Of a stretch of 52,771 nt of DNA, positions 7,993 to 36,880 are shown in pieces; position 1 is the first letter of the stretch; the number at the start of each line of letters is the position of its first letter. The notes under the pieces are model-generated. The model searched no databases. It had not been told where the DNA came from and was given only the letters and a program-made list of their open reading frames with translations. The translations under genes were made by a program, and so were the position numbers. Source of the stretch: an uncultured Bacillales bacterium (GTDB taxonomy: Bacteria; Bacillota_I; Bacilli_A; RF39; UBA660); assembly GCA_947089915.1 (NCBI GenBank), contig CAMUMB010000002.1, forward strand, positions 1 to 52,771, read 5' to 3'.

Positions 7993-8064
7993 ATATGCAC
8001 CGCCATTCTAATTCTATTTTAACATATGTATATGCAACAGACAATTGTTTTATGTAAAATGTGA

Positions 8065-9457: not shown

Positions 9458-9526
9458 AATTTCACCTCATATTATTCACATTATATAATAAATCAAAAAA
9501 AAATAAAAGATGCTTTTGTACATCTC

Positions 9527-9940
9527 TTATTCATTTCGAATACTATATTCGATATTTGTTGCATGAGAAAGGTCAATGGAACATTCTGTTACTACCTCTC
9601 TAGTCTCTCTTTTTGGAACAATATCACCGACATATCCTTGTAAAACAACAATAGTATTACCATCAATATCTTTTGCAATAATATCGAAATTTTCCACTTG
9701 AATGTCCTCGTCTGATTCATTGGTCACTAGAGTCGTTAATTTAGACGTATCATCATCAATTACCAAAGCCGTATTTGTAAATTTCAGTACTCCCAATTCT
9801 CGATCTTTAATAACACCCTCATTGGTATTACCATGAACTGTATTATCTTCCGATTTTACTTCTTCTTTTTTAGAACAACCACAGCCTGTCATTCCCAATA
9901 AAAATATTGTTATCAGAAATCCAATTCCAATTTTTTTCAT
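9527..9940 (-). CDS. lipoprotein, unknown function
   Basis: Lipobox GMTG|C. The remainder is beta-rich. A terminator-like hairpin with a T-run lies at about 9497-9522 on the minus strand. Confidence 0.6.
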   Translation of the reverse strand: MKKIGIGFLITIFLLGMTGCGCSKKEEVKSEDNTVHGNTNEGVIKDRELGVLKFTNTALVIDDDTSKLTTLVTNESDEDIQVENFDIIAKDIDGNTIVVLQGYVGDIVPKRETREVVTECSIDLSHATNIEYSIRNE

Positions 9941-13035: not shown

Positions 13036-13188
13036 ATGACACCTCAACTATATTATACTTTAAAATACCCATTTTTACTATAGAAGATAAACTTTTGACG
13101 TATTTCATTCGTTTATAGGGCATTTGTGCGACACCATTTGAAAAAAGTGGAATATGCTATATTGAATATAAAAGAAGGGGTGGATTAT

Positions 13189-13641
13189 ATGTGTGAAAAC
13201 AATAACAACAATAACAATGACTGCAAATGCATCGCCGAAATATTAACTGTTATTTGCATTCTTCAACAAAATGCAAACTGTGCAGATGGATGTTGTCTAG
13301 ATACTTGTGATCGTGGATTCTTAGGATGCTCTACAACAAGCTTAAACTGCAATACAAGACCAATTATGTTATATACTTGCTGCGGAAACGGAACACCATG
13401 GTCAATGCCAACTACAAAAGAAGCAGTTGTATGTGGTGAAGCTGGAGCCGTTTGTTCAAACGTATTTAGAGTTGAAAAAATAGATGGATGCTGTGCTACT
13501 TTTAGAGTATTGGCACCAAATCCTGATGCTGCAGAAGCTGCTACAATTCCTTATGTAGCAACAAATTCATTCTTCACAATGAATCTAAATTGTGTTTGTG
13601 TAATCAAATGCTTACAAGATACATTTGTTGAATGCATATAA
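13189..13641 (+). CDS. CotY/CotZ (ExsY)-family cysteine-rich spore coat/exosporium protein
   Basis: Start at ATG 13189 behind AAGAAGGGGTGG. VFRVEKIDGCCATFRVL and NLNCVCVIKCL are colinear with B. subtilis CotZ VFFRVERVHGSCATLSLL and DLDCFCAINCL (from memory). About 20 Cys. N-terminal Asn run. Confidence 0.8.
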   Translation: MCENNNNNNNDCKCIAEILTVICILQQNANCADGCCLDTCDRGFLGCSTTSLNCNTRPIMLYTCCGNGTPWSMPTTKEAVVCGEAGAVCSNVFRVEKIDGCCATFRVLAPNPDAAEAATIPYVATNSFFTMNLNCVCVIKCLQDTFVECI

Positions 13642-20157: not shown

Positions 20158-20290
20158 AAGAACAAATTGATTATAACATAAAATATAAGTACACACAATA
20201 TTTTATGCTAAAAAATTAGAAATTGCTTTATATAACACCATTTTTAGACATTTCTACCTTGATATGCATATACTATATATAGGTGATTAT

Positions 20291-20719
20291 ATGTCAATTA
20301 TCAAACATACAACTTCTGAAAGAGACTTACTAGCAAGATTGATGCGAGCAGAAGCCGTTGGCGAAGGCGATTTAGGTATGTTAATGGTAGGGAATGTTGG
20401 AGTCAATCGTGTACTTGCCAATTGTCTTACTTTTAATGATGTTAGAACAATTCAACAAATGATTTATCAAACTCCAGGTGGCTTTAGTGGAAAAGATAGC
20501 CCATTATTCTTTAGTAAACCAACTGTCAAAGAACAAGAACTCGCAGATCGTGTCATTCGGGGACAATACTACCATCCTGCGACCAATGCTTTATGGTTTT
20601 ATGCGCCTAGCACAGGACAAAGTTGTAAAGCATTATGGTGGGACCAAGAGAATACAGGGAGATATAAAAATCATTGTTTCTACCAACCATACGCTGGAGA
20701 ATGTAAAGAACTGCATTAA
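20291..20719 (+). CDS. cwlJ: spore cortex-lytic enzyme CwlJ (SleB-type Hydrolase_2 domain)
   Basis: Start ATG 20291 behind AGGTGA. LLARLMRAEAVGEGDLGMLMVGNVGVNRV...VRTIQQMIYQ...HCFYQP is colinear with B. subtilis CwlJ (LMARLLRAEAEGEGKQGMLLVGNVGINRL...LRTIRQMIYQ...HCFYQP, from memory). Confidence 0.85.
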   Translation: MSIIKHTTSERDLLARLMRAEAVGEGDLGMLMVGNVGVNRVLANCLTFNDVRTIQQMIYQTPGGFSGKDSPLFFSKPTVKEQELADRVIRGQYYHPATNALWFYAPSTGQSCKALWWDQENTGRYKNHCFYQPYAGECKELH

Positions 20720-20745
20720 AAAACTTCATCCGAAGTTTTTTATAT
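20719..20745. terminator. bidirectional terminator between convergent cwlJ and the amidase gene
   Basis: AAAAAACTTCatccGAAGTTTTTT. Confidence 0.7.
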
Positions 20746-21705
20746 TGTAATAATATCTCCTGTTTGAACTTGTTTATTCTGTAAGTGATTCTTTTTGATA
20801 AGTTCTTTCACATCTGTACGATATGCACTAGCAATCTGATATAAATTCTCTCCCTTACGTACAGAATGTTCAACTGAATTCCGATTTGGAATCTGAATCA
20901 TATCACCCATCTGCACTAAATTACTCTTCTTATGATTATATTCCATTAATTCTTTTAAATCAATATGAAACTTTTGACAGATTTGATATAAGTTTTCTCC
21001 CTTGCCTACCACATATTGAATTACCTTTTCTTCCTTTTTTGTTTTAATTTTATCTCCAGTCCGTAATAAATTATCTGTAAAGCCATTTAGTACCTTTAAT
21101 TCATCTACACTTAAATGGAATTTCTTTGCAACATTCCACATTGTATCTCCCTTAGAAACTTGATACCAATCATTTTCCACTTTACCACCAATATATTCAT
21201 AAATTGTATCCACAATGGTATCTACACCTTTATCTAAATCACCACGATTTTGGACAAATGGATAGGAAATTCTTAATACCTGCATATTTGCCGTATTCCG
21301 ATGCATCAAATAATAATCCAAATGGGCATTACTTCCCAAACGTTTGGAATGGCAAATAACCTGTTCATGATGATACATTAGATTAGAAGCAATCCGATTC
21401 GACAATTGCGAAGATTGCTTGATTCCATAAACAATTTCATATTCCTTATTCAAGTAAACGTGATTGGAAATGACGATTACAAACTTGTGGTCACCATACA
21501 TTTCTGTTATTTTTTTGATACGGTCCGATGGAAAAATAGTATCATCCTTATCTCTCACTAACATAACAGGTACATTTAACGCTTCCAATTTTTGATACAT
21601 ATATTTTGATAACTCTAATGTAATATTTTTTTCAGGTATATTGGAAAGTAAGCAACCTGTATCATCCCCACCATGACTCGCATCTATTATTATTTTATAA
21701 TCCAT
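20740..21705 (-). CDS. Amidase_3-like domain followed by three LysM domains
   Basis: N-terminal IIIDASHGGDDTG, PEKNITLEL and ISNH resemble MurNAc-L-Ala amidase. The C-terminal half has three Y.V..G(D/E)....(I/V)A repeats. There is no signal peptide. Confidence 0.75.
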   Translation of the reverse strand: MDYKIIIDASHGGDDTGCLLSNIPEKNITLELSKYMYQKLEALNVPVMLVRDKDDTIFPSDRIKKITEMYGDHKFVIVISNHVYLNKEYEIVYGIKQSSQLSNRIASNLMYHHEQVICHSKRLGSNAHLDYYLMHRNTANMQVLRISYPFVQNRGDLDKGVDTIVDTIYEYIGGKVENDWYQVSKGDTMWNVAKKFHLSVDELKVLNGFTDNLLRTGDKIKTKKEEKVIQYVVGKGENLYQICQKFHIDLKELMEYNHKKSNLVQMGDMIQIPNRNSVEHSVRKGENLYQIASAYRTDVKELIKKNHLQNKQVQTGDIITI

Positions 21706-23578: not shown

Positions 23579-24511
23579 TCATAGTGTTTTAATTTCTCTC
23601 CAATTGTCTGGAAAACCTATCTTATTTAATATAAGATTCAGTGGAACCACATCTACTTTTCCATCTAATACATCAATTTCATACCCAATTTCGTTAATCA
23701 ACTGAACAAATTCTGGTTCACTCAGCATTTGTTTCATGATAATGATAATTGCATATAAATCATTTTTTCCATAATTGTATTCATCATCTGTCATATCAAT
23801 AGAAAGCAAATAATGATATTTTGAATCTGGAATGGAACGCTGTGTTCTATGGTCATATAAAATTTCCTCATGCGCACATAAATTTCTAAAATTTGATAAC
23901 AAATTCAAATAAATAGATAATGTCTCTGGGTCTACATTATAAAGTTCGGCAATTTCTATTTGATCTTCTGTCTTTAATATGTTATACAATTCTGAAATAA
24001 TTCCAAACGACAACACTTTCACCAAAATCCACATAGGAATATAACCATAATTACTGATATAATGCATTGTTGCAGTATGTTGTGCTCCATTAACACGTAT
24101 TTGACGTTTCATTTTATTGATTACATCGTGTACTTGTCTTGTTTTCATGTGATCTTGACAGAAGTTTTTAGGATTTAAATAGTCTTTCTCCTTAAATCCA
24201 TATTTTCTAGATAATTGGTAACTAATAATAGATTTCAAATTATTTTCAATGACTAAAATATATTGAAACATAATATTACGCATTCTACGGTCAAACATAA
24301 ACATGGCATACAGTTCTTCGAAAGTTGTTCCTTCTATAAACCTATTATCTTTCATAGAGTGCATAAATAAATGGCGGTATCCATTGATAAAGAAATAATT
24401 CTCACGAAATAAAATAGCCATTGCTTTTTGTTCATCTTCAATAACAAGACCTTTTGATTTTAATATTTCTATCTGTTCATCTAATGTTTTGAATATTTTA
24501 TTCTTCGCCAT
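23579..24511 (-). CDS. Abi-like protein (Abi_2 / AbiD-AbiF family)
   Basis: Start MAKNKIF (ATG 24511) behind AGGTGA. The opening F.TLDEQIEILKSKGL.I.D...A...L....YF.INGY and the later NLCAH pattern are typical of PF07751 as I recall it. Confidence 0.7.
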   Translation of the reverse strand: MAKNKIFKTLDEQIEILKSKGLVIEDEQKAMAILFRENYFFINGYRHLFMHSMKDNRFIEGTTFEELYAMFMFDRRMRNIMFQYILVIENNLKSIISYQLSRKYGFKEKDYLNPKNFCQDHMKTRQVHDVINKMKRQIRVNGAQHTATMHYISNYGYIPMWILVKVLSFGIISELYNILKTEDQIEIAELYNVDPETLSIYLNLLSNFRNLCAHEEILYDHRTQRSIPDSKYHYLLSIDMTDDEYNYGKNDLYAIIIIMKQMLSEPEFVQLINEIGYEIDVLDGKVDVVPLNLILNKIGFPDNWREIKTL

Positions 24512-24593
24512 CTCATCACCTACAGTCATTGTTATCATTATAACATAATTTAACAAAAAAATTGTGTTTTTTTCATGAAAAATCCAGTTATTA

Positions 24594-25144
24594 TCAACTG
24601 GACTTTTGCTTTATATATTCAAGTACTCCTTCTGTAATTGCTGTTGCGATTTTATTCTGATAGGTATCTTGTGTTAATAAATATCGGTCACTACTATTAC
24701 TTAAAAAGCCAGCTTCAATTAATACACCAGGTCTTTCGATTCTTTTTTGTAAATATAAATCATCTGTTTTCTTTACACTTCTTTTGCTTCCTAAGTACTT
24801 CTTCATCTGCTCTTGCATTATTTTAGCAATTGTTTCGTTTTCTTTATTAATATCATCATAATAGACTTCAGCACCTCTCCAAATTCCTGTTTCTTCTGCA
24901 TTTAAATGAATCGATAAAAATAAATCACAATCAGAACGATTGATAATATTTCCCCTTCTTGATAAATCACTTCTTTTTCGGTTAATGGTATTGTTTACGG
25001 ATAAATCATAATCCCCATAACGCGTCATATATACAATTGCCCCTAAAGAAGCCAGCTTTTCTTCTAATTTTTTACTTATTTTTAAATTAAGGTCTGCTTC
25101 ATGGATATTTTTATACATAGCGCCTGGGTCGCTCCCCCCGTGGC
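24594..25144 (-). CDS. cwlD: cwlD 3' segment (germination-specific N-acetylmuramoyl-L-alanine amidase, gene split by the mobile element)
   Basis: From codon H (25142-25140): HGGSDPGAMYKNIHEADLNLKIS...DLFLSIHLNA...PGVLIEAGFLSN, an Amidase_3 domain lacking its first strand and signal anchor. The seven codons upstream in the track ORF are element DNA. Confidence 0.85.
25140..25144. repeat. left copy of the 5-bp core GTGGC (attL/attR crossover region)
   Basis: The identical pentamer occurs at 34585-34589. The flanking bases differ on both sides. Confidence 0.75.
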
Positions 25145-25198
25145 TGGCACCTGTTATACCCAAAAACTATATTTCTTTTATTTTTTATAGGTTATATT

Positions 25199-26803
25199 TT
25201 ATAAATCAAGATTCCATTCAATCTTAATTTCTCTTGTCTTGGTATCTTTATCTAATGCACCAACATATATTTTTTCTATAAACTCATCCACAATTATTCT
25301 AGTCAGTTTATCAATTTTCTTATATTTTTTTAGTATGCTTTCTATATCTTTTGAGTTTTCTTTTCTAGTTTCAGTTTCGTCAAGTTGTTTTTCTATATCT
25401 TCAAGTCTTGTTTGATAAGATTCAACATCTTTTGTATATTCTTCTCGAAGCATTGAAAAATCTTCTTCTGATATAATACCTTTCATCTTATCCATATAAA
25501 GATTTTTAAAGTACAACTTGCTTTCATTTAACTTTTTTTCAAGATTAGCTTTCTCTTTATTTAAATTAGTAATTAATGTATCTTGTCTATTTTGTCTTTC
25601 TAATGTTTCATTAAATTCTTCTTTTAGTAATTTTTGGTTACATTTTTTTAATAAACCATTTATAGCATCAAGTACATATTGTTCTATAATATCATATCTT
25701 ATTGATTTATTATTATCACAAGTATGATACTTTTTATTTCCTTTGCATTGTAGATATGCTCTTTTTTCCATAACTCCACCAGCACATTTAATATTACATT
25801 GATTTCTCATAAATATTCTTCCACATTCAGCACAATAAACTTTACTACTTAAAATGTGTACTTTTCCATCTTTTGCTGGTCTATGATGATTTTTTAATCT
25901 TCTCTGAACTAAATACCATGTTTCATTATCAACAATAGGTTCATGAGCATTTTCAGTAACACTCCATTCTGATTTAGGAACACTTTTAGATTTATGATTT
26001 TTATAACTAATGTTTGTTCTTTTTCCTTGTACTAAATTCCCCATATAGGTTTCATTTCTAAGCATTGTTGCGATTGTGTCTGGTGTCCATATTCCAGTAG
26101 TATCATAATCAAAATTGCAACAAACAAAATTACTTCCAATAGACTTTTTATAAAGAGATGGACATAATATTTTTCTTTCATTTAAACTTGCACATATTCT
26201 ATGATAGCCAAGTCCATTTTTGTATTTTTCAAATATTTCTCTAACAATAGGTGCAACATTTTCATCAATAATAAGTTTATGTTTATCATTAGGATCTTTC
26301 ATATAACCATAAGGAGCAAAACTTCCCATAAATAAACCATCATCTCTTTTATTCTTTAATGACTTTTTAACATTGTTAGATAAATCTTCTAAATACCATT
26401 CATTAACAAGCCCATTGATTTGTCTTGATTTTTTGTTTGCTTCATTATTAGTATCAGCATTATCAACTATACTTACAAATCTAACTCCCCATTCAATAAA
26501 CTTATTATGTAAATATCTTTCTATTACTTCCATATCTCTTGAAAATCTACTTTGTGTTTTACATAGTACAATATTTATTCTTCCATTTTCACAATCATTA
26601 ATTAACCTATTAAAATCTGGTCTTTCAACTCCTGCTCCAGAATAATCGTCATCTGAATAAATATCTACAACTTCCCAATCTTGATCCAAAGCATATTTTA
26701 AAAGCATACTTTTTTGATTAGCAATTGATTCACTATCATCGTTTTTATTCTTCTTATATCTATCTTCATCAGATAGTCTACAATATACACCTACCTTTTC
26801 CAT
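25199..26803 (-). CDS. large serine recombinase
   Basis: N-terminal resolvase domain (VGVYCRLSDED..., CKTQSRFSRD), recombinase domain, Cys-rich zinc ribbon (CAECG...C...C) and a long C-terminal coiled coil. 534 aa. Confidence 0.92.
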   Translation of the reverse strand: MEKVGVYCRLSDEDRYKKNKNDDSESIANQKSMLLKYALDQDWEVVDIYSDDDYSGAGVERPDFNRLINDCENGRINIVLCKTQSRFSRDMEVIERYLHNKFIEWGVRFVSIVDNADTNNEANKKSRQINGLVNEWYLEDLSNNVKKSLKNKRDDGLFMGSFAPYGYMKDPNDKHKLIIDENVAPIVREIFEKYKNGLGYHRICASLNERKILCPSLYKKSIGSNFVCCNFDYDTTGIWTPDTIATMLRNETYMGNLVQGKRTNISYKNHKSKSVPKSEWSVTENAHEPIVDNETWYLVQRRLKNHHRPAKDGKVHILSSKVYCAECGRIFMRNQCNIKCAGGVMEKRAYLQCKGNKKYHTCDNNKSIRYDIIEQYVLDAINGLLKKCNQKLLKEEFNETLERQNRQDTLITNLNKEKANLEKKLNESKLYFKNLYMDKMKGIISEEDFSMLREEYTKDVESYQTRLEDIEKQLDETETRKENSKDIESILKKYKKIDKLTRIIVDEFIEKIYVGALDKDTKTREIKIEWNLDL

Positions 26804-27073
26804 CTACTACAACACCTCTAATCTTAAGAGTTGTAGCAAACTTAAATCTACAAAGATATTATATATCATTTTAAGAATTATTTAAAGCTACACTATCTTC
26901 TTCACTTGCTAATATAACTCGTAGTAATTTTTTTGCTATAATATCTTCTAAATCTTTTTCTTCAATAATTACATTATTTTTATTTACATATATTACATTA
27001 TAATTTACCTCCATTTTATCTGTACCCCCTTTTTTATTCTCTATAAAGAATATCCTCCTAATTTAATCATATA

Positions 27074-27562
27074 TCAATCCTCCTTATACTTACTTAATAA
27101 TTCTTCCATGTATGCTTGTTCTTCAGAACTTGCTTTTTCTGATTTACAAACTTCTGGATGCTCCATCCAATATGGAATTAAATTATTATTAATATTATTA
27201 TTTTTTCTTGTATATTCTTTTCTTTTATATTGGTAATTTTTTACTATGTTTTTATTCTCGTTTTTTTCTAAAACTTTAGAATTTTCATTACTTACGACTG
27301 TCTTATTTAAATAAATTTTTCTTTGTCTATTAACAAATTTAACATCTATGTACTTCTTCCTTTTTAAATTATTAATAGAATTTGATATTGTTTTTTCTTT
27401 AACACTTAACTGATTAGCAAAGTAACTATTACTAGCGTAGCAATACTCCTTATTATTTGATAATGAATTAATCATACCATAAACTAACTTATCTGTTTGG
27501 GAACAAGTTTGGTCATTTAATATTATTCTTGGTACAGCTATAAAATACCTTATAAAAGCCAT
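27074..27562 (-). CDS. RepA_N-like winged-helix protein (replication-initiator-like)
   Basis: Start at ATG 27562. FIAVPRIILND...DKLVYGMI...YCYASNSYFANQLSVKEKTISNSINNLKRKKYI matches the RepA_N/HTH pattern common on Firmicute ICEs and plasmids (from memory). Confidence 0.55.
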   Translation of the reverse strand: MAFIRYFIAVPRIILNDQTCSQTDKLVYGMINSLSNNKEYCYASNSYFANQLSVKEKTISNSINNLKRKKYIDVKFVNRQRKIYLNKTVVSNENSKVLEKNENKNIVKNYQYKRKEYTRKNNNINNNLIPYWMEHPEVCKSEKASSEEQAYMEELLSKYKED

Positions 27563-27754
27563 ATATCCCACTTTCAAAATATAGTTTCTAAGTATTGGTT
27601 AAGCCTATTTTGAGCGCAATATCCCTAGGAGGATTTTTTATATCTATCCCCCAAAGATATTGTTTTAATTCATTCTATAACTTATATAGAATAGGTACTA
27701 ACATAAGCCTTTAATCTTACTGTACCTCTTATAACTAACGTTCTGTAAACTTTT

Positions 27755-28012
27755 TTAGTTAAGTGTTATTGTGTACATTCCTGTATCATATTCTTGAAAT
27801 ACTAGGTATTTTAATTTTTCTAATAGTTCTAGATTTTTTCTTAAACCCTCATTTTTAATTTTGATGATTTGTTGTATTTCTCCTATATTTATATCTGTGA
27901 TAATTCGTTCATTACCTTTAGCATATATATAAGAGTAAATATATTTTGCTTCTTTTGGAATACTTTTATCTTTCCATATTGTTTTTGGTATCTGAAACTT
28001 TACAATCTTCAT
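27755..28012 (-). CDS. small winged-helix protein
   Basis: 85 aa with the same IPK.I..D..I...AKYIYSYI...I.....IGEI pattern as the N-terminus of the neighbouring RepA_N-like protein. Divergent from the XRE gene. Confidence 0.5.
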   Translation of the reverse strand: MKIVKFQIPKTIWKDKSIPKEAKYIYSYIYAKGNERIITDINIGEIQQIIKIKNEGLRKNLELLEKLKYLVFQEYDTGMYTITLN

Positions 28013-28175
28013 TCATATCTTTTCCTCCTTCCTTTTTTTGATGAGTTTTACATCAATTTCAAATTGAGTATATCATTATATATTGAGTTTGTCAACATAG
28101 TAATTACAATTTTGTTGATTTTTACAACAATGTGTGCTATAATTTATTTATCAAACGAAAAAGAGGTGTATTAAG

Positions 28176-28784
28176 ATGTTAAAGAAAAATACTACAGAAT
28201 TAGGTAAAACCATAAGTGAAGCAAGAGAAAAAATTGGAATTTCACAAAGAGAATTAGCAAGACAATCCAACATGGACTGTGCTGAGGTTTCTCGTATTGA
28301 AGCTGGAAAAAGGTTAAAACCTAATGTTTTATATTTAAAAGGGATTGCTGAAACATTAAATTTAAGTATGGTTGATTTAATGAAACTTGCTGGATATAAT
28401 GATATGAAAATAAATTGGGGACAAGATTTTTCTGATAGAAGAGCTACTGCTGACTATCAAAAACAAATAAAAAGTTATGAACAATTTTATTTTGACATTT
28501 TAGAAGAATTAGAAACAAGAAGAAAAACTGATTTTGCAATTAAAGGTGGCATTGCTGATTTAATTGATAAATTAGAACTTGCTAAAATAGAAAATAAGGA
28601 AATATCAAATGATGAAATATTAGATAGACTAAAAGAATTAATTCCTATGATTAGACCTAATTTAGAAAAATTTGATAAATCAAAATATCCATCTTTTGAT
28701 TCTGGTGTATTTCCTAAAATAGAAATACAATCTGATGTGAAGTATCCTACTGTACCAAAGAATTTATTAGATAAGAAAGATTAA
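28176..28784 (+). CDS. XRE-family HTH regulator with C-terminal helical domain
   Basis: ISQRELARQSNMDCAEVSRIEAGKR HTH. Upstream TTGATT-N17-TGcTATAAT promoter and an inverted repeat TCAACA...TGTTGA in the divergent intergenic region. Confidence 0.8.
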   Translation: MLKKNTTELGKTISEAREKIGISQRELARQSNMDCAEVSRIEAGKRLKPNVLYLKGIAETLNLSMVDLMKLAGYNDMKINWGQDFSDRRATADYQKQIKSYEQFYFDILEELETRRKTDFAIKGGIADLIDKLELAKIENKEISNDEILDRLKELIPMIRPNLEKFDKSKYPSFDSGVFPKIEIQSDVKYPTVPKNLLDKKD

Positions 28785-29086
28785 AATTACGAACACCTTT
28801 TATTTTTACAAGGTAAAAATGAAAGCAAGAAAAGTAATTTTATTCATCTTTACTTTTGCTATGCAAAAGAAAAAATAACCTTTTTGCTTTAGTCGCCAGA
28901 CTTTAGCATTAAGGTTATTTTCATATAAAGAATACGTGGCACGTTTTGTCAGCTATGCTGATGAAAGTGGCGATAGTATTCATTCTTTTTATTTAAACTT
29001 GATTTAAATAAAAAGGCAACAATATTACATTGTGAAACTTTGTAATATGTTGCTTAAATGGGGTTTCAAAAGGGAGCACCCTTTGC

Positions 29087-29125
29087 ACACATCGTTATTG
29101 GCTTTGCCAATATCGTAGTGTGTTA
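29087..29125 (+). other. oriT-like hairpin plus nick-core-like TAGTGTGTTA
   Basis: Imperfect hairpin ACACATCGTTATTGGC-ttt-GCCAATATCGTAGTGTGT. Its 3' arm runs into GTAGTGTGTTAC, which matches my recollection of the pMV158/MobV nick region (..TAGTGTG/TTA..). Confidence 0.4.
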
Positions 29126-29202
29126 CTAAAATGTCATTTTAGTCATTTACGAAAATCCATTAGTTGTAAAACTTCTTTTGAATTTTCATGATAAAATTTT
29201 AG

Positions 29203-29841
29203 TTATAATCTTATATAATTAGTATAAATTTTCATAAATTCTGAATGTGTTTCAATAACTATCTCATAAGTATTAGAACCAATTTGAATAATTAATCCAT
29301 CTTTTGCCTCTTGAATAGATGTAATCTTATCATGTGGTTTATCAAAGCTAACATTTTGTGATGAATAAATTAATCTCTTTGTTGTCAAATATAGAGTACC
29401 AAAATATTTAGTCCTTTGAGTTTCCCTAATAGCTTGACTACCACTAGCACCAGTTCTATATGAAATACCTTTTGCAATTCTTATGCTTATACCATTATTT
29501 TTTCCTGTATATCCAGTAGTAATAGTTTTATCTTTAAACGTATAACCTTTATCCATATAACAACAAAAATCATCACGTTCAAGGTTTAAATTTGGAGTAT
29601 TAATACAAGGTAAATCCCCATCATTAATTTGTTTAATAACATCATAACTCATCAATGAGCCAAATCCATTTATGTGAAATAAATTCTTTCCAGCAGTTAT
29701 AACATCTTTAAGCCATCCTATTAAAAATATTCCTCCAGTAAATAAATATAATATTCCCATACCAAATTCTCCATTAACAAACTTATGAACACCAAAAGGT
29801 CCTCCAAACAAAACAATAAAGAAATCTTTTATTTTTTTCAT
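29203..29841 (-). CDS. TM2-domain membrane protein with C-terminal PH-like (bPH/YokE-like) domain
   Basis: N-terminus FGGPFGVHKFVNGEFGMGILYLFTGGIFLIGWLKD is a TM2-type motif. C-terminal FGTLYLTTKRLIY...F..P..KI is a bacterial PH-like pattern (from memory). Confidence 0.55.
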   Translation of the reverse strand: MKKIKDFFIVLFGGPFGVHKFVNGEFGMGILYLFTGGIFLIGWLKDVITAGKNLFHINGFGSLMSYDVIKQINDGDLPCINTPNLNLERDDFCCYMDKGYTFKDKTITTGYTGKNNGISIRIAKGISYRTGASGSQAIRETQRTKYFGTLYLTTKRLIYSSQNVSFDKPHDKITSIQEAKDGLIIQIGSNTYEIVIETHSEFMKIYTNYIRL

Positions 29842-29851
29842 TAAATATACC

Positions 29852-30043
29852 TCACTTATTTTTTAATTTTAACTCACTTTTGACAAGATGAATAGGAATA
29901 AAAATGTCACGTTTACTTTCTGGTATGTAATAATTTTTTTCTTTAGCAATTTTTAATAAATGTTTCATTACTCGTTCACCATTTCTTCTTCCACATCCCA
30001 ATAGTTCAGTTAACTCTTTTTGATTAATATATGCTTTTTCCAT
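29852..30043 (-). CDS. small HTH protein, DUF3173-like (common next to IME integrases)
   Basis: 63 aa. INQKELTELLGCGRRNGERVMKHLLKIAKEKNYY....R...IPIHLV resembles the DUF3173 pattern (from memory). It could be an excision cofactor. Confidence 0.45.
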   Translation of the reverse strand: MEKAYINQKELTELLGCGRRNGERVMKHLLKIAKEKNYYIPESKRDIFIPIHLVKSELKLKNK

Positions 30044-30111
30044 TCATATCCCCCATTTTTGCTAGTCTTATGGTATTTCAATCTTATTTTTCGTGTGATA
30101 GCTTGGTATTT

Positions 30112-30489
30112 TTATAAAGTATAATTATCTACATTTCCATTATATTTATATTTTAATTTACTAAATTTTATTGCTTCAAAGGAAGTTCCCCAAAAAACAA
30201 TTTGCTTTTCAGAATTCTCATCAGAATTATAAATGATAACTAAATAATGTTTCTTATCGTTTGTTCCTAATGTATTATGATATTTTTGCATAAATTCATT
30301 ATCTCTTAAATAATCAATTTTGACTATTTTGTTTTTAGGTAATGTAACAGTCATTTCAGGTTTAATCTTTTTAATTTCAAATACATCCTCTTTTTCTTCT
30401 ATAGTACATGGATAGTCTTGATTGAATCCTTTTAATCCATCATAATGTACAACTCTAATTATGTTTTTGTTTTTCTTTTTAAATATCAT
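30112..30489 (-). CDS. hypothetical protein
   Basis: 125-aa ORF with RBS GAGGTGA. No recognisable motif. Confidence 0.5.
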   Translation of the reverse strand: MIFKKKNKNIIRVVHYDGLKGFNQDYPCTIEEKEDVFEIKKIKPEMTVTLPKNKIVKIDYLRDNEFMQKYHNTLGTNDKKHYLVIIYNSDENSEKQIVFWGTSFEAIKFSKLKYKYNGNVDNYTL

Positions 30490-30506
30490 ATATAGTCACC
30501 TCTAGT

Positions 30507-30818
30507 TTATTTATTTTTTTCTTTTAGTAAACTAATTAAATCTTTTTTCATACCATCAAAGTTATCAATAATTTTGTTTAGTTTATCTTCAATTCCATCA
30601 ATAAGTGTTAATTTTCCATTTTTATATGCAATTAGTCTTTCTGCAATAATATGATAGCTCCAACTACCACCATTGTTTTTAACAGCAAAGCCAATTGGGA
30701 GTTTATCTTGTCTCATACCAATAGATATAAACATTGGAGATACACCTAAATAATCACCTGCAATCTTACAAGTAACTTTTTTCATATTTCTTATATCTTC
30801 ATCTAAATATTTTTGCAT
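30507..30818 (-). CDS. hypothetical protein (possible HTH)
   Basis: 103-aa ORF with RBS AGGGTGA. KIAGDYLGVSPMFISIGMRQ could be an HTH. Confidence 0.5.
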   Translation of the reverse strand: MQKYLDEDIRNMKKVTCKIAGDYLGVSPMFISIGMRQDKLPIGFAVKNNGGSWSYHIIAERLIAYKNGKLTLIDGIEDKLNKIIDNFDGMKKDLISLLKEKNK

Positions 30819-30827
30819 ACAATCACC

Positions 30828-31955
30828 CTATAATTGTTTTAAGAAATCATCTTCGCTAATTATTTCAATATTTTTACCTTTTTCTTTTAATTCCATAGCT
30901 TTTTGAACTTTACCACCATAATTTCCAAATTTCCATGCATCGCTTCCAGAACCACCAACTATTAAATAATTGGTTTTTGAGGTAACACCTTTTCCACAAA
31001 TGCCACCTTTTTGATTAATCTTTTCTTCAATACTATCTTTAGAACCAGAATTAAATGTACCAGTTAAACAGAATATTTTATCTTGAAAATTCACACTATC
31101 ATTTATTTTTTCCTCTTTTATAGGATTTATAAAATCATTAAACACTTTCATCAATTCATCATATTCATTAGTAGATACTACGCCATCTTCTAATACATTT
31201 TTTACGATGGAATAAATTTTATCAAAAGGATAATTGCCAATTAATTGTGTATTACTATCTAGCCATTCATTCAATTCATTAATCTCATCTAATTCAATTT
31301 TATTATCATTCATTATAGATTCAATAATTCTTTTTAAATTTTGTAATCCCTTTGTATCGTCACTATAAACTATTTTCATTCCTGTAGAACGATTTCTACT
31401 TTCAATATAATTGTAATTTTCAATATCATTTTCATCCAAACCATATTTATCATTTATATATTCAAATATTTCAAGACTAGCTGTAGTATCGCATAAAGCA
31501 TTGTGATGGTATTCTAAATCTATATTGAGATAATCACATACTTGATCTAGTTTATAATGACTAATATCCAAATACTTTTGTGCTAATTTTTGTGTACATA
31601 CAACTTTTAAAGTAGGTAAAGCAATATTATATTTTATTAAGGTTTTAGAAATAACACTTAAATCATATTTAACAGCATGACCTATGATTATACTATTTTC
31701 TATAATATCTTTATTATCTTTCCAAAACACATCAAAAGTAATGGCATCTTTAACCATATTAGGTGTTATTTTATTTACTCTCATATTAATATCATCAAAC
31801 CTATCTTCTGGATTTATTAATATATATTTTTTATTTATAACGTTTCCATCTTTAACCTGTATAAATGCTATGGAACAAATGGAATCGGCTTTGGTATTTG
31901 GATTTTCAATATCCAATACTACATAATTATCTAATTTAATACTTGTTTTAACCAT
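30828..31955 (-). CDS. DEDDh (DnaQ-like) 3'-5' exonuclease fused to a C-terminal BRCT domain
   Basis: Exo I VVLDIEN, Exo II GHAVKYDLSV, Exo III HHNALCDTTA. C-terminal FCLTGTF...NYLIVGG...KA.ELKEKG..IEIISEDDF is BRCT-like. Start placed at ATG 31955. Confidence 0.75.
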   Translation of the reverse strand: MVKTSIKLDNYVVLDIENPNTKADSICSIAFIQVKDGNVINKKYILINPEDRFDDINMRVNKITPNMVKDAITFDVFWKDNKDIIENSIIIGHAVKYDLSVISKTLIKYNIALPTLKVVCTQKLAQKYLDISHYKLDQVCDYLNIDLEYHHNALCDTTASLEIFEYINDKYGLDENDIENYNYIESRNRSTGMKIVYSDDTKGLQNLKRIIESIMNDNKIELDEINELNEWLDSNTQLIGNYPFDKIYSIVKNVLEDGVVSTNEYDELMKVFNDFINPIKEEKINDSVNFQDKIFCLTGTFNSGSKDSIEEKINQKGGICGKGVTSKTNYLIVGGSGSDAWKFGNYGGKVQKAMELKEKGKNIEIISEDDFLKQL

Positions 31956-31979
31956 ACTGTAATTCACTCCTTTTAAATT

Positions 31980-32225
31980 TTATATAAAGGTATATCTTGG
32001 ATCTTTTTTCATTTTCTCTATTTCCTCATCTGTATAAAACCAATCTGAAGTATCAATTCCTCTTCTTTCACAATTTCTTGCTATTTCATTAATTGTGTCA
32101 TAAAGATTTGTTAAATTCTTTCTTAATTGAGTAACAGTCATTTCTGGAATTATTACTTCAACCTTTGTATTACCAAGATTAAACCTCTTTATTTCATGTT
32201 TAATAATTATATCATCATCTTTCAT
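31980..32225 (-). CDS. hypothetical protein
   Basis: Start at ATG 32225 behind GAGGAG. First gene of the tightly packed minus-strand operon 32225-29203. Confidence 0.5.
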   Translation of the reverse strand: MKDDDIIIKHEIKRFNLGNTKVEVIIPEMTVTQLRKNLTNLYDTINEIARNCERRGIDTSDWFYTDEEIEKMKKDPRYTFI

Positions 32226-32291
32226 AAAGATAACACTCCTCATATAAGATTATATCACAAAATATCACTCAATTATGGCTGAATACAAATA

Positions 32292-32588
32292 TTAATAATC
32301 TAAGCTTAAGAAATTACAAAAAGAATTAAATAATTTTATCCTTTTAAGCTCTTTAAATAGTAAAAAGAATACAACCATTTCTATAACTAACATAATAATG
32401 GCTACCTCTATCGCCATACCTGGACTAATAACAGTTAAAGCAAAATCTTTTGGTATATTCAACAATTCACAGTAACTAATCCCAATATTATAATTAAACT
32501 GCATTAGAAAAACTAATCCTGAAAAAATCAATGTTAATATAAATGCTTTTAAACAAACTAAACAAATATCTTTAAAACTTAAATACAT
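32292..32588 (-). CDS. small membrane protein
   Basis: 98 aa, about 3 TM helices, RBS GAGAGGAGA. Confidence 0.5.
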   Translation of the reverse strand: MYLSFKDICLVCLKAFILTLIFSGLVFLMQFNYNIGISYCELLNIPKDFALTVISPGMAIEVAIIMLVIEMVVFFLLFKELKRIKLFNSFCNFLSLDY

Positions 32589-32691
32589 AATCTTTCTCCT
32601 CTCAAAAAAATTATATCACTATTTTGGTACATATTCCATACTTTTGGTAACAATAACTATTTTAATGGGAAAATTAAAATGGTGATGTACT

Positions 32692-33129
32692 GTGCTAGAT
32701 AATAATTTGAAATATGCAAGGGAAGATTTAGAAATGACACAAGAAGAATTAGGTTATGTGTTTGGTGTTAAAAAAGCAACTATATCGAATTGGGAAAATG
32801 GCTACGATATAATTCCTTTGAATAAACTAATTAAATTCTGTAATCTTTATGACTATTCTTTAGATTTTATTATTGGATTTACTAGAGAAAATAAAATTTA
32901 TCCTAAACTTGATAAAGTCGATAAAGTTAAAATTGGCAAAAAACTTAAAGATCTAAGAAAGAATCTAGGATTAACACAAGAACAAATTGCTAATGAATGT
33001 TCTATATCCCGTGCTACTTATTGTCATTACGAATTAGGTATGAATCTAGTATCAACTCTAACTCTTTATACAATTTGTAAGAATCATAAAATATCAATGG
33101 ATTCATTTTTAAGGCAACAAAAAAAGTGA
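32692..33129 (+). CDS. XRE-family regulator with two HTH domains
   Basis: Two HTH_3-like repeats (MTQEELGYVFGVKKATISNWENG and LTQEQIANECSISRATYCHYELG). GTG start behind GGTGA. Confidence 0.75.
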   Translation: MLDNNLKYAREDLEMTQEELGYVFGVKKATISNWENGYDIIPLNKLIKFCNLYDYSLDFIIGFTRENKIYPKLDKVDKVKIGKKLKDLRKNLGLTQEQIANECSISRATYCHYELGMNLVSTLTLYTICKNHKISMDSFLRQQKK

Positions 33130-33162
33130 GAATATGCTAACTAAATAACATACCTCACTTTT

Positions 33163-34446
33163 TTACATACCAATTTCAAAGTCATCTTTTTCTTTATCGT
33201 TATAAGTTTCATCGCTTTTTAAATAACTGGGTACTCCTGCATAATCAAATAACTCATCTTCTTTAGTAGTACCTTTAGAAATATCATAAATATCATTTGT
33301 ATTAAAGTCTTGATTGTCATAATAGTCCTTTATTTCAGTTGTAGTAGCCTCTTTTGTAGGTTCATTACCAATTTGTAGTAATTCCCTAAAAAAGTGTTTT
33401 ATTGCCTCTAAAATGGCTTTTAAATAAGTTTTAAGGTTATTATTCTCTTTGGTCAAGTTTTGATTTCTTGTAGTAAGTGCTTTTACCTCGCGTTGTAGAT
33501 TATTATTTTCTTTTTCTAATGTTTGATGGCTTTTACTAAAAGTGTCTACTTCATTAAATAATTGTTCCATTTTAGGTTGAAATTCCATAATCTTTTTAGT
33601 TTCTTTTATTACATTTTGCATACTATCAAAAGTATCTTTTCTAACCTTTACATACTCTTTATCTATTAAGGTATTTTTAGTAGTTTGCATTTTTTCTTCA
33701 AAATCATTCATAGCATTATCAAGATTCTTATTGATGGTTTCAACTTTATTTTCATAATATTTTGTTGTTTTCTTAAATTCTTTTATTTTAATATGTTTTC
33801 TATCACTCCCCTTAATACCTCTTTCTAAATCGAATCCAGCTTCTCTTAATCTTAAATTATAAATATCTTGTAATTCTGATAAATGAATATTATCTTTTAT
33901 ATATTGTTTTTTTGAAATAGTAAATCTTTCTGTATTTGTTCTTTTATCTAATTTTTTAACAAGTGGTACAACTACGCAATGAATATGTGGTGTTAATTCA
34001 TCTAAATGAATTGTTGCGTGTAATACTTGTTCTTTTTTATAACCTAAATCATTATAAACAAAATCCATACAAGTATCAGCCCACTTCATTATTTCTTCTT
34101 TATTCATATTATCAAAAAACTTATGGGTTGCTGTAAACATTAACTCATCTGCAACAACACTTTTAGATTTATTTAACATTTCATTAAAAGTTCTTTTTCT
34201 ATCATCTCTTTCAGTTTTCATTCTTTCGTTATGTTCTTTTTCATAATCTTTTACAAGCAATTTAAAACCCTTAACATATTTCTCAGCTAAGGGTACTAGT
34301 TCTATATTGTTTTTCGTTAATTCTAATTTAATATTAGGATTACTTTTATAAGCCTTTTTTTCTCGCTTATTATGGGATCCTATTTGTGCTAAATCATTTA
34401 TAGTCATTATCTGCTGACTTCTAAATATTCCATAATTCAAATTCAT
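33163..34446 (-). CDS. MobV-family relaxase (Mob/Pre plasmid recombination enzyme)
   Basis: N-terminal HNKRE (HxxR-type motif) and HATIHLDELTPHIHCVVVPL (HxDE...PHxH metal site). Long coiled-coil C-terminus, as in MobM. Confidence 0.88.
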   Translation of the reverse strand: MNLNYGIFRSQQIMTINDLAQIGSHNKREKKAYKSNPNIKLELTKNNIELVPLAEKYVKGFKLLVKDYEKEHNERMKTERDDRKRTFNEMLNKSKSVVADELMFTATHKFFDNMNKEEIMKWADTCMDFVYNDLGYKKEQVLHATIHLDELTPHIHCVVVPLVKKLDKRTNTERFTISKKQYIKDNIHLSELQDIYNLRLREAGFDLERGIKGSDRKHIKIKEFKKTTKYYENKVETINKNLDNAMNDFEEKMQTTKNTLIDKEYVKVRKDTFDSMQNVIKETKKIMEFQPKMEQLFNEVDTFSKSHQTLEKENNNLQREVKALTTRNQNLTKENNNLKTYLKAILEAIKHFFRELLQIGNEPTKEATTTEIKDYYDNQDFNTNDIYDISKGTTKEDELFDYAGVPSYLKSDETYNDKEKDDFEIGM

Positions 34447-34483
34447 ATATCATCCTCTCTTTCTAAATTTTTGAAAAATAAAA

Positions 34484-34513
34484 ATACTTTCGTTAAAAAG
34501 TATCTTAGTGTAA
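34484..34513 (+). other. oriT-like inverted repeat immediately upstream of the relaxase gene
   Basis: ATACTTTcgttaaAAAGTAT followed by CTTAGTGTAA. It resembles my recollection of pMV158 oriT (..ATAAAGTATAGTGTG/TTA..). Confidence 0.4.
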
Positions 34514-34584
34514 TTATTATTAAATTATATAGATTATCATTTGCTACAACTCATACTTATTACATTGGGTTTATACAAACTCGG

Positions 34585-34589
34585 GTGGC
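34585..34589. repeat. right copy of the 5-bp core GTGGC
   Basis: Identical to 25140-25144. It lies exactly at the His codon of DPGH in the 5' cwlD fragment. Confidence 0.75.
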
Positions 34590-34710
34590 CAGGGTCTATG
34601 TAAATCACTTTCCCTAGTAATGGAAGTTCATTATCTTGAGCAGATGCAAAACTAAAACTAAATATTCCAATCATCAGTAAAAATAATGTGCCTAGTTTGT
34701 ATTTCAACAT
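34585..34710 (-). CDS. cwlD: cwlD 5' segment (signal/TM anchor through DPGH)
   Basis: Start ATG 34710 behind AGGTGA. MLKYKLGTLFLLMIGIFSFSFASAQDNELPLLGKVIYIDPGH, then 15 element-derived codons to a stop at 34537. B. subtilis CwlD has LPLSGKIIYLDPGHGG at the same position (from memory). Confidence 0.8.
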
Positions 34711-34800: not shown

Positions 34801-35517
34801 CTATTTATTAACGATTTCAGTTTTGCATAAAGATACAAAAGCAGGATTACTGTTATTTGGTCCTACAACAACAACCATTCCATACTCACTTCGTAAAATT
34901 GTTCCCTGAGAAACTGTTTTCCCACCTGCATTAATATCTACACTTGCAGTTCCCGCTGGTAAATAGGAACGAAGCGCTGCTTCACAATTTGCATCACATC
35001 CTGTTGGTAATGGTGTAGGTGCTGGTAAATAGGTGATTGCATTGTTATAAGTGCTACTGGTAACTGTGATAGATGCGATTCTACAAATAGAAACTGCTTC
35101 TTCTGGCACACCTTGATTATTTACTAATTGAAATAAACCAGAATTAGGGTTGTTATTAGGTCCAGGTAATAGAGAACCAGGCCTACCACTTGCATTATTT
35201 CCACTTTCCATTGCAACTGTCAAATTATCATTTGGATAAAGTGTAATAATTTGCTGGATGACATTGCGCATTTGGTCTACACAAAAGCAAGCTGCCGAAT
35301 TAGCATTACTACCTGCTGGCCCCGTTGGTCCTGTTGCTCCTGTTGCTTCTGTTGCTCCTGTTGCTCCTGTTGGTCCTGTTGGCCCTGTTGCTCCTGTTGC
35401 TCCTGTTGGTCCTCCAGCTGGCCCTGTTGGTCCAGTAGTTCCAATTATCCCAACACATTGTGGCTTACAACACGCATCTTGTTCAATTTTCTTTAATGCC
35501 TTATCATATAAATTCAT
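34801..35517 (-). CDS. BclA-like collagen-repeat exosporium protein
   Basis: Short N-terminal domain with CC..QC, about 14 G-X-T triplets (GPT/GAT) and a 165-aa C-terminal globular domain. RBS GAGGAGGA. Confidence 0.8.
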
Positions 35518-36189: not shown

Positions 36190-36880
36190 AATCATAACCA
36201 CGCCTAAAAGATGTGGTTTGCACTAGCCCTATAAGGACAATTATATCAGCTAGCCATTTTAGAACGGCTGGCTTTCATTTTATTCAAGCCTCTTTGCGTT
36301 TTTCTCCTAGCTACCCTTTGAAAGGGTTTTTATATTCTTTCTTCGTCATCTTATCTTCTATTTGATCTTCTTTTTCTTGTTCTCTTATATACTTCTTTAT
36401 TGTTGCTTCATTTAATCCTACTGTACTTACATAATATCCTGTTGTCCAAAAGTTTCTATTCCCTAACTTATATTTTAGATTTGCATGCCTTTTAAATATC
36501 CCATGAAACTTGACACACTCATCTTTGGTGGTATTTGTAACAATAAATGTACATGATCTGGCATTAAGTTCCCTTCTATTATTTTTTATTCCTTTATACT
36601 GACAAAGTTTTCCTATGATTTCCGATAAGTCCTTTCTTAACTTATAATATAGCATTTTTCTTCTATACTTCGGTATGAATACAATATGGTATTTACACAT
36701 CCACTTTGTATGTGTTAAACTATTTGCCATAGAGCGCCACTCCTTTCTGTTATAATTGAGGCCTGAACACCTAAATTATAACAGACGTGTCGCTCTTTTC
36801 TATAAGCTTTTAACTCCCACACATTATATGTGTGGTTTTTTCTTCCTACGCTCCGCGTTGGAAGAACCCTTAAGGTTCAT
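36190..36880 (-). mobile_element. IS200-type element, decayed (approximate ends)
   Basis: A TnpA-like ORF is flanked by hairpin-rich non-coding ends. These are AGCTAGCC..GGCTGGCT around 36259-36286, CTGTTATAAT..ATTATAACAG around 36756-36793, and CCACACAT-tat-ATGTGTGG around 36817-36835. Confidence 0.5.
36311..36730 (-). pseudogene. tnpA: IS200/IS605 Y1 transposase TnpA, HUH motif out of frame
   Basis: The N-terminus HTKWMCKYHIVFIPKYRRK and C-terminus RHANLKYKLGNRNFWTTGYYVSTVG are canonical. The middle reads IIEGNLMPDHVHLLLQIPPKMSVSSFMGYLKG only in another frame. This follows an extra base in the T6 run 36582-36587, with an internal deletion near 36485 restoring the frame. Confidence 0.75.

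Follow-up and report, generated by a model that had tools for sequence, protein, structure and literature searches.

Several mobile elements are known to split sporulation genes in frame, namely skin in sigK, SPbeta in spsM, vfbin in spoVFB, gin in gerE and yin in yabG (PMC10747680). They share a serine recombinase near one end and an exact rebuild of the gene, and they excise during sporulation with the recombinase or its recombination directionality factor (RDF) under sporulation control; gin is not a prophage (PMC5595907, PMC10747680). Another group, Tn4451 and Tn4453 of Clostridium perfringens and C. difficile (TnpX and TnpZ), combines a large serine recombinase (LSR) with a MobV relaxase in less than 10 kb, and Tn4451 recombines at 2 bp without needing an RDF (PMC5704250). 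Here, we analysed a 52,771-nt stretch of DNA from an uncultured Bacillales bacterium (contig CAMUMB010000002.1; hereafter, the window), in which a 9,445-bp element with an LSR and a MobV relaxase splits a cwlD-type germination amidase gene within the codon of a catalytic His.

The earlier note on this DNA likened the arrangement to skin and SPbeta, and a part of this likeness stands, since a sporulation gene is split in frame, the LSR gene lies near one end, the gene is rebuilt exactly in silico, and the insert, like gin, is no prophage. However, the likeness is one of geometry: unlike the skin-type elements, the window element is mobilizable, spreads horizontally and is not dedicated to cwlD, as the same LSR type is also found in non-CwlD, non-sporulation amidase genes. 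With Tn4451 and Tn4453 the element has in common the LSR and MobV genes, the size, the 2-bp core and a clostridial or Bacillota host, while it differs in that its LSR gene lies at the end reading outward and that it has no resistance cargo; its likeness to TnpX is taken from description. The LSR has the same domain architecture as TndX of Tn5397 and is 33.6% identical to it over the full length, including DUF4368, which marks a multi-targeting LSR clade comprising TndX-like enzymes (Durrant et al. 2022, PMC10083194). By the definition used there, one 90%-identity LSR cluster with several target-gene clusters less than 50% identical, the window LSR group is multi-targeting; unlike that clade, its targets belong to one protein family and are hit at one codon, so that it is motif-specific rather than relaxed. 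The word 'amidase' is absent from the main text of that paper, and no report of a cwlD or any other Amidase_3 gene as an attachment site was found in the literature searched. The statement of the earlier note that cwlD had not been described as a target thus agrees with the list of known intervening-element targets (PMC10747680). Within this literature, cwlD is a new target gene among sporulation-gene interruptions, and the element group that targets the amidase His codon is widespread and apparently undescribed.

The interrupted gene and its empty site

The earlier note had read two fragments on the minus strand as the halves of one Amidase_3 gene, called cwlD, of which the 5' half would run into 15 unrelated codons and which the removal of 9,445 bp would restore to an uninterrupted 223-codon open reading frame (ORF) with a DPGHGG motif, and all of this was upheld. 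The 5' fragment encodes MLKYKLGTLFLLMIGIFSFSFASAQDNELPLLGKVIYIDPGH, and its hydrophobic anchor continues into ...NELPLLGKVIYIDPGH; the ORF then passes through the His codon into 15 unrelated, element-derived codons, PSLYKPNVISMSCSK, and stops at 34537-34539. Joined in silico, which takes out 9,445 bp, 24594-25144 and 34590-34710 (minus strand) form a 672-nt ORF with 223 codons in which DPGHGG is restored. The joined protein matched Pfam Amidase_3 (PF01520; 167 bits) and, over the whole model, NCBIfam TIGR02883 spore_cwlD (positions 1-189 of 189; 198.9 bits, below the curated cutoff of 221.55), which outscores every other family by more than 130 bits. Among solved structures, C. difficile CwlD is the closest relative (7RAG_B, E 6e-39; the next match reaches 82.6 bits), and the alignment crosses the joint colinearly with conservation of GHGG, the Glu after GHGG, SIHLNA and LIE(A/C)GFLSN, residues whose roles are known from C. 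difficile CwlD, in which the zinc-ligand His is His49 (PMC8496864). The joined protein has a hydrophobic N-terminus (LGTLFLLMIGIFSFSFASA) that reads as a membrane anchor, a length of 223 aa and no extra wall-binding domains. Taken from these matches, the interrupted host gene is a cwlD-type amidase. The host, a Bacillota with 29% G+C, is, judging by the genes for CotZ (13126-13641) and a SleB/CwlJ-type Hydrolase_2 protein (20264-20719) in the window, an endospore former, and no second intact cwlD occurs in the window. As long as the element is integrated, cwlD is broken, with a 5' fragment that stops after 15 foreign codons and a 3' fragment that lacks the membrane anchor.

The empty site, which the earlier note had proposed to look for in related genomes, was found on six syntenic contigs (L001-L003, L084-L086), where the gene is uninterrupted; therefore, the split is an insertion into one gene and not a pair of independent genes. 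Three intact 223-aa proteins in public protein data (P0001-P0003) are 100% identical to the in-silico join. The longer empty-site contigs have the gene order of the window in common (small heat-shock protein, collagen-like protein, cwlD, Abi_2, HtrA, PedC-like protein, LysM-repeat amidase, SleB-type hydrolase), the empty-site contigs are 91-98.5% identical in nucleotide sequence to the window flanks, and the two blastn alignments meet at the empty site with an overlap of 4 nt; the closest of these contigs comes from a mouse gut metagenome. In a protein search, the clusters nearest to the joined CwlD were nearly all intact (218-239 residues), the only truncated ones being the window fragment and that of L098. 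The latter is a second occupied allele of the same cwlD lineage, with 93% protein identity, the same attP arm and a host-gene synonymous divergence (dS) of 0.94.

Just 3' of the crossover (window 25137 and 25140; joined-gene positions 126 and 129), the occupied window allele reads CAC GGG GGG, where all six empty alleles, even those that differ at up to 40 other sites, read CAT GGA GGG; both changes are synonymous. Their origin as a by-product of insertion was rejected, for the occupied L098 and L004 read CAT GGA.

One codon in many amidase genes

Comparison of attL with attR, which covered the window, L004, L006 and L088-L090, located the crossover. The bases on both sides of a CA dinucleotide differ between attL and attR in L088-L090, where CA is the sole contiguous identity, which places the crossover at the 2-bp CA that starts the zinc-ligand His codon in D-[P/A]-G-H-G-G. 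The pentamer GTGGC noticed earlier at both breakpoints is indeed present (25140-25144 and 34585-34589), but it was rejected as the core, as only CA is common to attL and attR of these related elements and its other three bases match by chance. The core of Tn4451 is GA. In distant clades (L012, L021-L024) a longer common core, CATGG..., was found, which still lies within the H-G-G codons. The circular attP junction of the window element is predicted to read ...GGTGCCAGCCACCCGAGTTTG..., i.e. GGTGCCAGC-CA-CCCGAGTTTG, and the rebuilt attB would bear the strain-specific signature CACGGGGGG.

To survey the targets, 29 LSR relatives were aligned, one genome per GTDB species was scanned, and the best 80 loci (LSR identity 42-98%) were inspected. 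In 38 of the 80, the LSR stop codon is followed after 17-1,382 nt by the 3' half of an amidase gene whose first codon is precisely the His of H-G-G, and in none of these 38 do the four in-frame codons upstream of the His read D-[P/A]-G. The targets are of two kinds. Twenty-two of the 38 are CwlD-like in length and in their SxHxN motif, including that of Marasmitruncus massiliensis (L033); those that could be joined from both halves (L021, L033, L080) possess a membrane anchor, with TIGR02883 scores of 187-211 bits. Another 15 carry an NHxNAGG motif, have no signal peptide where the ends are visible and often several C-terminal LysM repeats, and those tested (L004, L012) score 68-69 bits on the same model; the remaining locus was unclassified.

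The closest relatives of the window LSR lead to the same codon. An LSR 99% identical to it (P0121) occurs on at least 10 further contigs (L088-L097), and together with L004 (98% LSR identity) and L087 (92%) these place what is in essence one element in the His codon of no fewer than six different amidase genes, with an attP arm that is identical in L004 and L088-L097. Metagenomes in which the element is present include ERZ27288323, ERZ27287337 and ERR10856086. Most of these host genes encode no signal peptide, some encode LysM repeats, and they are mostly not CwlD. All junctions seen for the group with 98-99% LSR identity fall in the His codon of Amidase_3 genes, in contrast to the low target specificity of Tn4451 (PMC5704250). 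The element is directed at a motif-encoding codon rather than at cwlD in particular. Near-identical LSR copies also occur in metagenome-assembled genomes (MAGs) labelled Tenericutes or Mycoplasma, which are possibly non-sporulating. An attachment site in a codon block that is fixed by enzyme chemistry would be a route to a broad host range for a mobile element, and, as integration tools, LSRs whose defined target encodes a protein motif are of practical interest.

We propose that the LSR recombines at the CA that opens this His codon in Amidase_3 genes, and that an incoming element would land in whichever amidase gene of the new host best matches the motif. In the window host this would be cwlD, the second amidase (20740-21705, LysM type) being a poorer match, and the degenerate motif of the latter, D-A-S-H-G-G-D-D-T-G, probably explains why cwlD was hit instead. 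That second gene (minus strand) encodes Amidase_3 and LysM repeats without a signal peptide and adjoins the SleB-type hydrolase gene; SNHVYLNKEYE replaces NHxNAGGG.GAE in it, and the protein may be catalytically inactive.

The divergence of LSRs and of host genes is uncoupled: in L042, L044, L045 and L051 the LSRs are 94-97% identical and the adjoining CwlD-like halves 48-72%, and between the window and L004 the LSRs are 98% and the amidases 29% identical. Therefore, the elements move horizontally, and the insertions are, as these comparisons indicate, recent, repeated and horizontal, unlike those of a fixed, domesticated element. Ancient vertical inheritance, which would have pointed to selection on the split gene and was examined by co-divergence, was rejected, with LSRs far more similar than the host amidases.

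Some further observations concern the targets. Sister LSR clades at 45-47% identity (L026, L027, L031, L050, L057, L074) abut other conserved coding motifs downstream of the LSR stop codon, for example an apparent ...RVALIRTLA..PDILLLDEPFSALD, the conserved signature region of an ATP-binding cassette (ABC) transporter ATPase, and this LSR family may generally tend to insert into codons of conserved motifs. In L088 (11661-11922), and also in L089-L092, L096 and L097, the LysM-type amidase gene is interrupted again right after ...SNHINAGG(G), and the DNA beyond is unrelated between contigs, with a TnpV gene in L091 and a gene for a 411-aa serine recombinase in L089 (13515-14750); this second conserved Amidase_3 motif thus seems to be another insertion hotspot. 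Contig L024 has its first base precisely at the H-G-G-codon CA of a CwlD-like gene and carries a 2.6-kb LSR element in a neighbouring LysM-type amidase gene. A sample with both occupied and empty forms, or with two copies, would be expected to cause an assembly break at that crossover.

The element and its recombinase leader

By its gene content (Table 1), the insert is an intact integrative mobilizable element (IME) of the Tn4451/Tn5397 kind that seems to have been active recently. It has 25.6% G+C, compared with about 30% in the flanks, and reads, in gene orientation, attL, inverted repeat, MobV gene, double-HTH regulator on the opposite strand, cargo, XRE regulator, divergent LSR operon and attR. 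The earlier note had placed the end of the LSR gene 54 bp inside the junction and had described the insert as a relaxase-bearing element that is no prophage, which the gene map bears out, with no phage structural genes found in the insert. Of the oriT-like sites that it also mentioned, a conserved inverted repeat upstream of mob was recovered as a candidate origin of transfer (oriT). A Pfam scan of nine element ORFs found neither a tyrosine recombinase nor a DDE transposase, leaving the LSR as the sole integrase, and no domains like those of a type IV secretion system or a mating pore. Relatives of the MobV relaxase (60-91% identical) occur in L004-L006, L012, L014, L021 and L088-L090, whereas the cargo block gave no blastn alignment with the otherwise similar element of L088.

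Table 1. Features of the split cwlD gene and the inserted element, in the order of the gene strand; positions are those of the window
Feature	Position	Strand	Remarks
cwlD 5' part, codons 1-41	34588-34710	minus	membrane anchor to ...IYIDPG; ATG at 34710; colinear with C. difficile CwlD
attL crossover dinucleotide CA	34586-34587	minus	first two bases of the His42 codon
Right arm, attP-derived, CCCGAGTTTGTATAAACCCAA	34565-34585	minus	imperfect inverted repeat of left arm; dyad partner recovered as inverted match in L010, L012
Segment 1, GAGTTGTAGCAAA	34540-34552	minus	13 nt; starts 35 nt inside attL; complements the 5' hairpin arm of the LSR leader exactly
Conserved inverted repeat AAGATACTTT-TTAACG-AAAGTAT	34484-34506	minus	upstream of mob; kept in window, L088, L004, L006; candidate oriT, possibly transcript end
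MobV (Mob_Pre) relaxase	33163-34446	minus	427 aa; Pfam PF01076, 100.4 bits
Regulator with two HTH_3 domains	32692-33129	plus	145 aa; Pfam
Variable cargo block	29203-32588	minus	98-, 87-, 103-, 125- and 63-aa ORFs, exonuclease, TM2 protein
DnaQ-like 3'-5' exonuclease with BRCT domain	30828-31967	minus	inside cargo block
TM2-domain protein	29203-29841	minus	inside cargo block
XRE/HTH_3 regulator	28176-28784	plus	202 aa; divergent from LSR operon
Upstream genes of the LSR operon	26871-28012	minus	85-aa ORF (27755-28012), HTH_36 protein (27074-27577), conserved 47-aa ORF (26871-27014)
-10-like sequence TGATATATAAT	26858-26868	minus	upstream of the hairpin
LSR 5' untranslated region hairpin (predicted)	26797-26846	minus	segment 2 pairs with segment 3
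Segment 2, TTTGCTACAACTC	26828-26840	minus	5' arm; begins 37 nt upstream of the LSR start codon
Segment 3, GTTGTAGTAGATG	26801-26813	minus	covers Shine-Dalgarno-to-AUG spacer and part of the start codon
LSR	25199-26803	minus	534 aa; Resolvase, Recombinase, Zn_ribbon_recom, DUF4368; Ser11 in invariant RLS motif
Left arm, attP-derived, TTTTTGGGTATAACAGGTGCCAGC	25143-25166	minus	identical in L004, L088-L097, L098
attR crossover dinucleotide CA	25141-25142	minus	from attL/attR comparison
cwlD 3' part, His42 to stop	24594-25142	minus	starts HGGSDPGAMYKNIHEADLNLKIS; carries SIHLNA and LIEAGFLSN

The related elements range from 2.6-3.9 kb to 9-11 kb in size. The small ones (L024, L033, L038, L080) consist of the LSR gene and little else, and in the larger Bacilli-type elements variable cargo is flanked by two conserved modules, one with mob and one with the regulators and the LSR gene. 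The 3.9-kb cwlD element of M. massiliensis Marseille-P3646 (L033 7748-11619) carries two ORFs of 262 and 294 aa (8023-9708), which resemble, by eye, housekeeping-type genes like ThiF/TcdA and TtcA and would be an odd cargo for a mini-element. An ORF of 41-50 aa (M.V.YNV...[ST]D.ELK.IINKKL..II..LE) precedes the LSR gene, mostly by 50-75 nt, in most of L004-L083, including clades with non-amidase targets; it has no significant Pfam match and is a candidate accessory or directionality factor. In the window element, sigma-A-type promoters close to the consensus face both ways in the intergenic region 28047-28143, to be read against a generic promoter scan that was overall at chance level, and no intrinsic terminator was predicted on the gene strand within the element.

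A putative, covarying three-part RNA feature links the two ends of the element. Segment 1, close to attL, is complementary to segment 2 in the 5' untranslated region (UTR) of the LSR gene, which is itself the 5' arm of a predicted 10-14-bp hairpin whose 3' arm, segment 3, lies over the Shine-Dalgarno (SD)-to-AUG region. The feature was found in the window, L004, L006, L010, L012, L021, L022 and L088, in five sequence codes across subfamilies. The complementary partners differ in sequence from one Bacilli-type element to another (segment 1 and UTR being GTTGTAGCAAAA and TTTTGCTACAAC in L006, GAGGTATAACAAT and ATTGTTATACCTC in L010, GAATGACTACAAAT and ATTTGTAGTCATTC in L012, and GATAAATGGCTACT and AGTAGCCATTTATC in L022), with one U-G pair in L021.

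The evidence for this feature comes from per-sequence folds, from cognate versus non-cognate duplex energies and from a position-blind scan. The scan sought, in each whole element, the longest exact complement to its first 110 nt. In seven of eight elements, positions -30 to -39 relative to the LSR ATG gave the longest match, a tie for the longest or the second-longest one, and the expected attP dyad arm came next in length in L010 and L012. Cognate duplexes reach -31 to -40 kcal/mol, non-cognate ones between sequence groups about -11 to -31 and mostly weaker than -25, and shuffled sequences -18 to -20 (sd about 3.6). The window leader folds at -17 kcal/mol (z -3.0 versus dinucleotide-preserving shuffles), and 22 distinct LSR leaders fold likewise with differing stems (z -1.7 to -4.4). 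In co-folding with the cognate left-end RNA, 10.6-17.4 kcal/mol is gained over the hairpin and the SD-AUG region is left unpaired. MAFFT alignment with RNAalifold on the LSR 5'UTRs brought the stems out of register and gave no consensus structure, no Rfam family matches the feature, and the complementarity is absent from the cwlD-targeting mini-elements of Oscillospirales.

We infer that LSR translation may be auto-inhibited and relieved by RNA from the other end of the element. Across elements, segment 1 lies only 26-38 nt from the crossover; therefore, a sense transcript of it in the integrated state must start in host DNA, in the interrupted gene, and segment 1 can become part of the LSR message only once the element is circular, through transcription that continues across attP. 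For the RNA feature, circular-state sensing would by itself be a full explanation. An alternative reading at the level of DNA, with two sites for one protein, was set aside, as it leaves the third complementary segment over the ribosome-binding region and the G-U pairs unexplained. Distant complementary segments that open a hairpin sequestering the ribosome-binding region are known from hok mRNA of plasmid R1 (fbi/tac) and from anti-antisense activation such as DsrA-rpoS, whereas the putative activating segment of the window element lies at the other end of the element beside the recombination site, and whether it is linked to the LSR message would vary with the state of integration. Tn4451 forms the tnpX promoter at the joint of its circle, while state sensing by the window element, if real, would proceed by RNA pairing. 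If functional, such pairing would be a new way to sense the integrated versus the circular state, and it could also sense host-gene transcription.

Excision, germination and the gene neighbourhood

Based on these findings, we lean, with some reserve, towards an autonomous IME that disrupts cwlD reversibly and excises on its own schedule, not as a programmed step of sporulation. If attL recombined with attR at CA, the element would come out as a circle and leave cwlD precisely restored, and the MobV relaxase and an oriT would let a helper conjugative element move this circle. The production of LSR would be under the control of the element itself, through an XRE-type switch with a sigma-A-like promoter and the 5'UTR hairpin over the ribosome-binding region. 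Segment 1 RNA, encoded about 35 nt inside the opposite end and linked to the LSR transcript only after circularisation, could open this hairpin, and read-through across attP would give an incoming or excised circle its burst of LSR for integration. For the host, the cost would be spores without muramic delta-lactam in every case where the element is not excised. The best promoter match of the LSR operon is sigma-A-like, and sigma-E/K/G patterns, which are crude, as no validated matrices exist for this taxon, gave no match upstream of the LSR in the window element and were no more frequent in cwlD-targeting elements than in those with non-amidase targets.

Several points weigh against this proposal. 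The RNA switch is deduced from sequence only. The circular attP junction had zero matches in JGI metagenome contigs and IMG/VR, a result that is uninformative, since the attP arm itself is absent from these collections. Cp36, a DUF4368 LSR, was inactive on attL and attR in human cells (PMC10083194); therefore, excision by the LSR alone is not assured. In B. subtilis and C. difficile, germination is severely impaired when cwlD is knocked out (PMC8496864), and the presence of such insertions in 22 species-representative genomes in spite of this suggests that the cost is somehow mitigated. Finally, the split halves are undecayed, with a ratio of nonsynonymous to synonymous divergence (dN/dS) of about 0.04 that is alike for occupied and empty alleles; this lack of decay proves little, because the insertions look recent and independent. 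As to circles, contigs of about 9.4-10 kb that were considered as such (P0123, P0156, P0166; L099, L103, L087) were rejected as linear pieces with host flanks, L099 and L103 having no terminal overlap and L087 being judged from its gene map.

A sporulation-coupled repair like that of skin and SPbeta, in which mother-cell transcription of cwlD crosses attL, segment 1 RNA opens the LSR hairpin and raises LSR translation, the element excises in the terminally differentiated mother cell, the rebuilt cwlD supplies amidase from the mother-cell side and the forespore keeps the element, is a possible but less probable account. The in-frame rebuild is exact, to a protein identical to the wild-type alleles, in a spore-forming host, and 22 CwlD-like genes of species representatives are split at the same codon, one of them by the 3.9-kb element in the type strain of M. 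massiliensis, which is spore-forming (PMC9584879). In C. difficile, cwlD is SigE-controlled and mother-cell specific (PMC6021603; for the mother-cell side also PMC8496864), so that repair in the mother cell only would suffice in a clostridial-type program. Integrated-state transcription of segment 1 from the host gene, as its distance of 26-38 nt from the crossover demands, would give the coupling that this hypothesis needs, and no intrinsic terminator predicted on the gene strand stands in its way. However, the RNA feature is fully explained by circular-state sensing, the cwlD-targeting Oscillospirales mini-elements lack the complementarity, and sporulation-type promoter patterns are not enriched near the LSR. 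Near-identical LSRs sit in non-CwlD amidase genes and in the Tenericutes- or Mycoplasma-labelled MAGs that may not sporulate, the occupied state is rare in this species group, and the absence of decay in the split gene, which would fit a regular repair, says little when insertions are recent and independent.

A bolder form of this idea, which we think improbable, would make of these elements a new class: intervening elements in the amidase catalytic His codon (cwlD in at least 22 gut spore-former species) would couple LSR translation by the RNA switch to host-gene transcription, so that mother-cell induction of cwlD leads to excision and restores delta-lactam and germinability, while the elements remain mobilizable between species. 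A dead-end insertion, made once and not excised at a useful rate, with an LSR that is unidirectional for want of a missing factor and a cwlD that is a fresh pseudogene in a strain persisting vegetatively or via a redundant amidase, is the least probable account, for although LSR integration is usually unidirectional without an RDF, as the inactivity of Cp36 on attL and attR illustrates (PMC10083194), the occupied allele is rare and evidence of excision is lacking in collections searched that do not contain the element, all element genes are intact, the LSR and attP arms are near-identical to copies in other hosts, implying recent excision and transfer, the conserved small ORF upstream of the LSR could be an accessory or directionality factor, and enzymes of the TnpX type need no further factor for excision (PMC5704250).

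Germination enzymes recognise a cortex modification that CwlD makes, and a reversible break of cwlD could toggle the germinability of spores. Repeated hits of one recombinase family on a single catalytic codon in many gut Bacillota, a culturable spore former among them, offer a direct experimental system for asking whether mobile elements gate the germination, and so the transmission, of gut anaerobes.

The surroundings of cwlD vary between strains. Just upstream of it (34801-35517, minus strand) lies a gene with a weak match to a glycine-rich collagen-like adhesin model; with its counterparts in L001 (9248-9910) and L002 (9140-9910; faint Pfam Collagen match), it encodes 238, 220 and 256 aa across strains and may specify an exosporium BclA-like protein with a variable repeat number. 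An IS200/IS605-family transposase gene of 139 aa (36311-36730, minus strand) has a 93-aa counterpart in L001; in L002 no such gene was called and the adjacent ABC-transporter block is also lacking. The Abi_2 gene (23579-24556, minus strand) directly follows cwlD. Downstream of the amidase targets of L088-L090 (12000-21600), differing defence-type sets occur (HamA, AAA_21, HipA_C, PIN, type I restriction-modification subunits), and the amidase loci seem to border variable defence islands.

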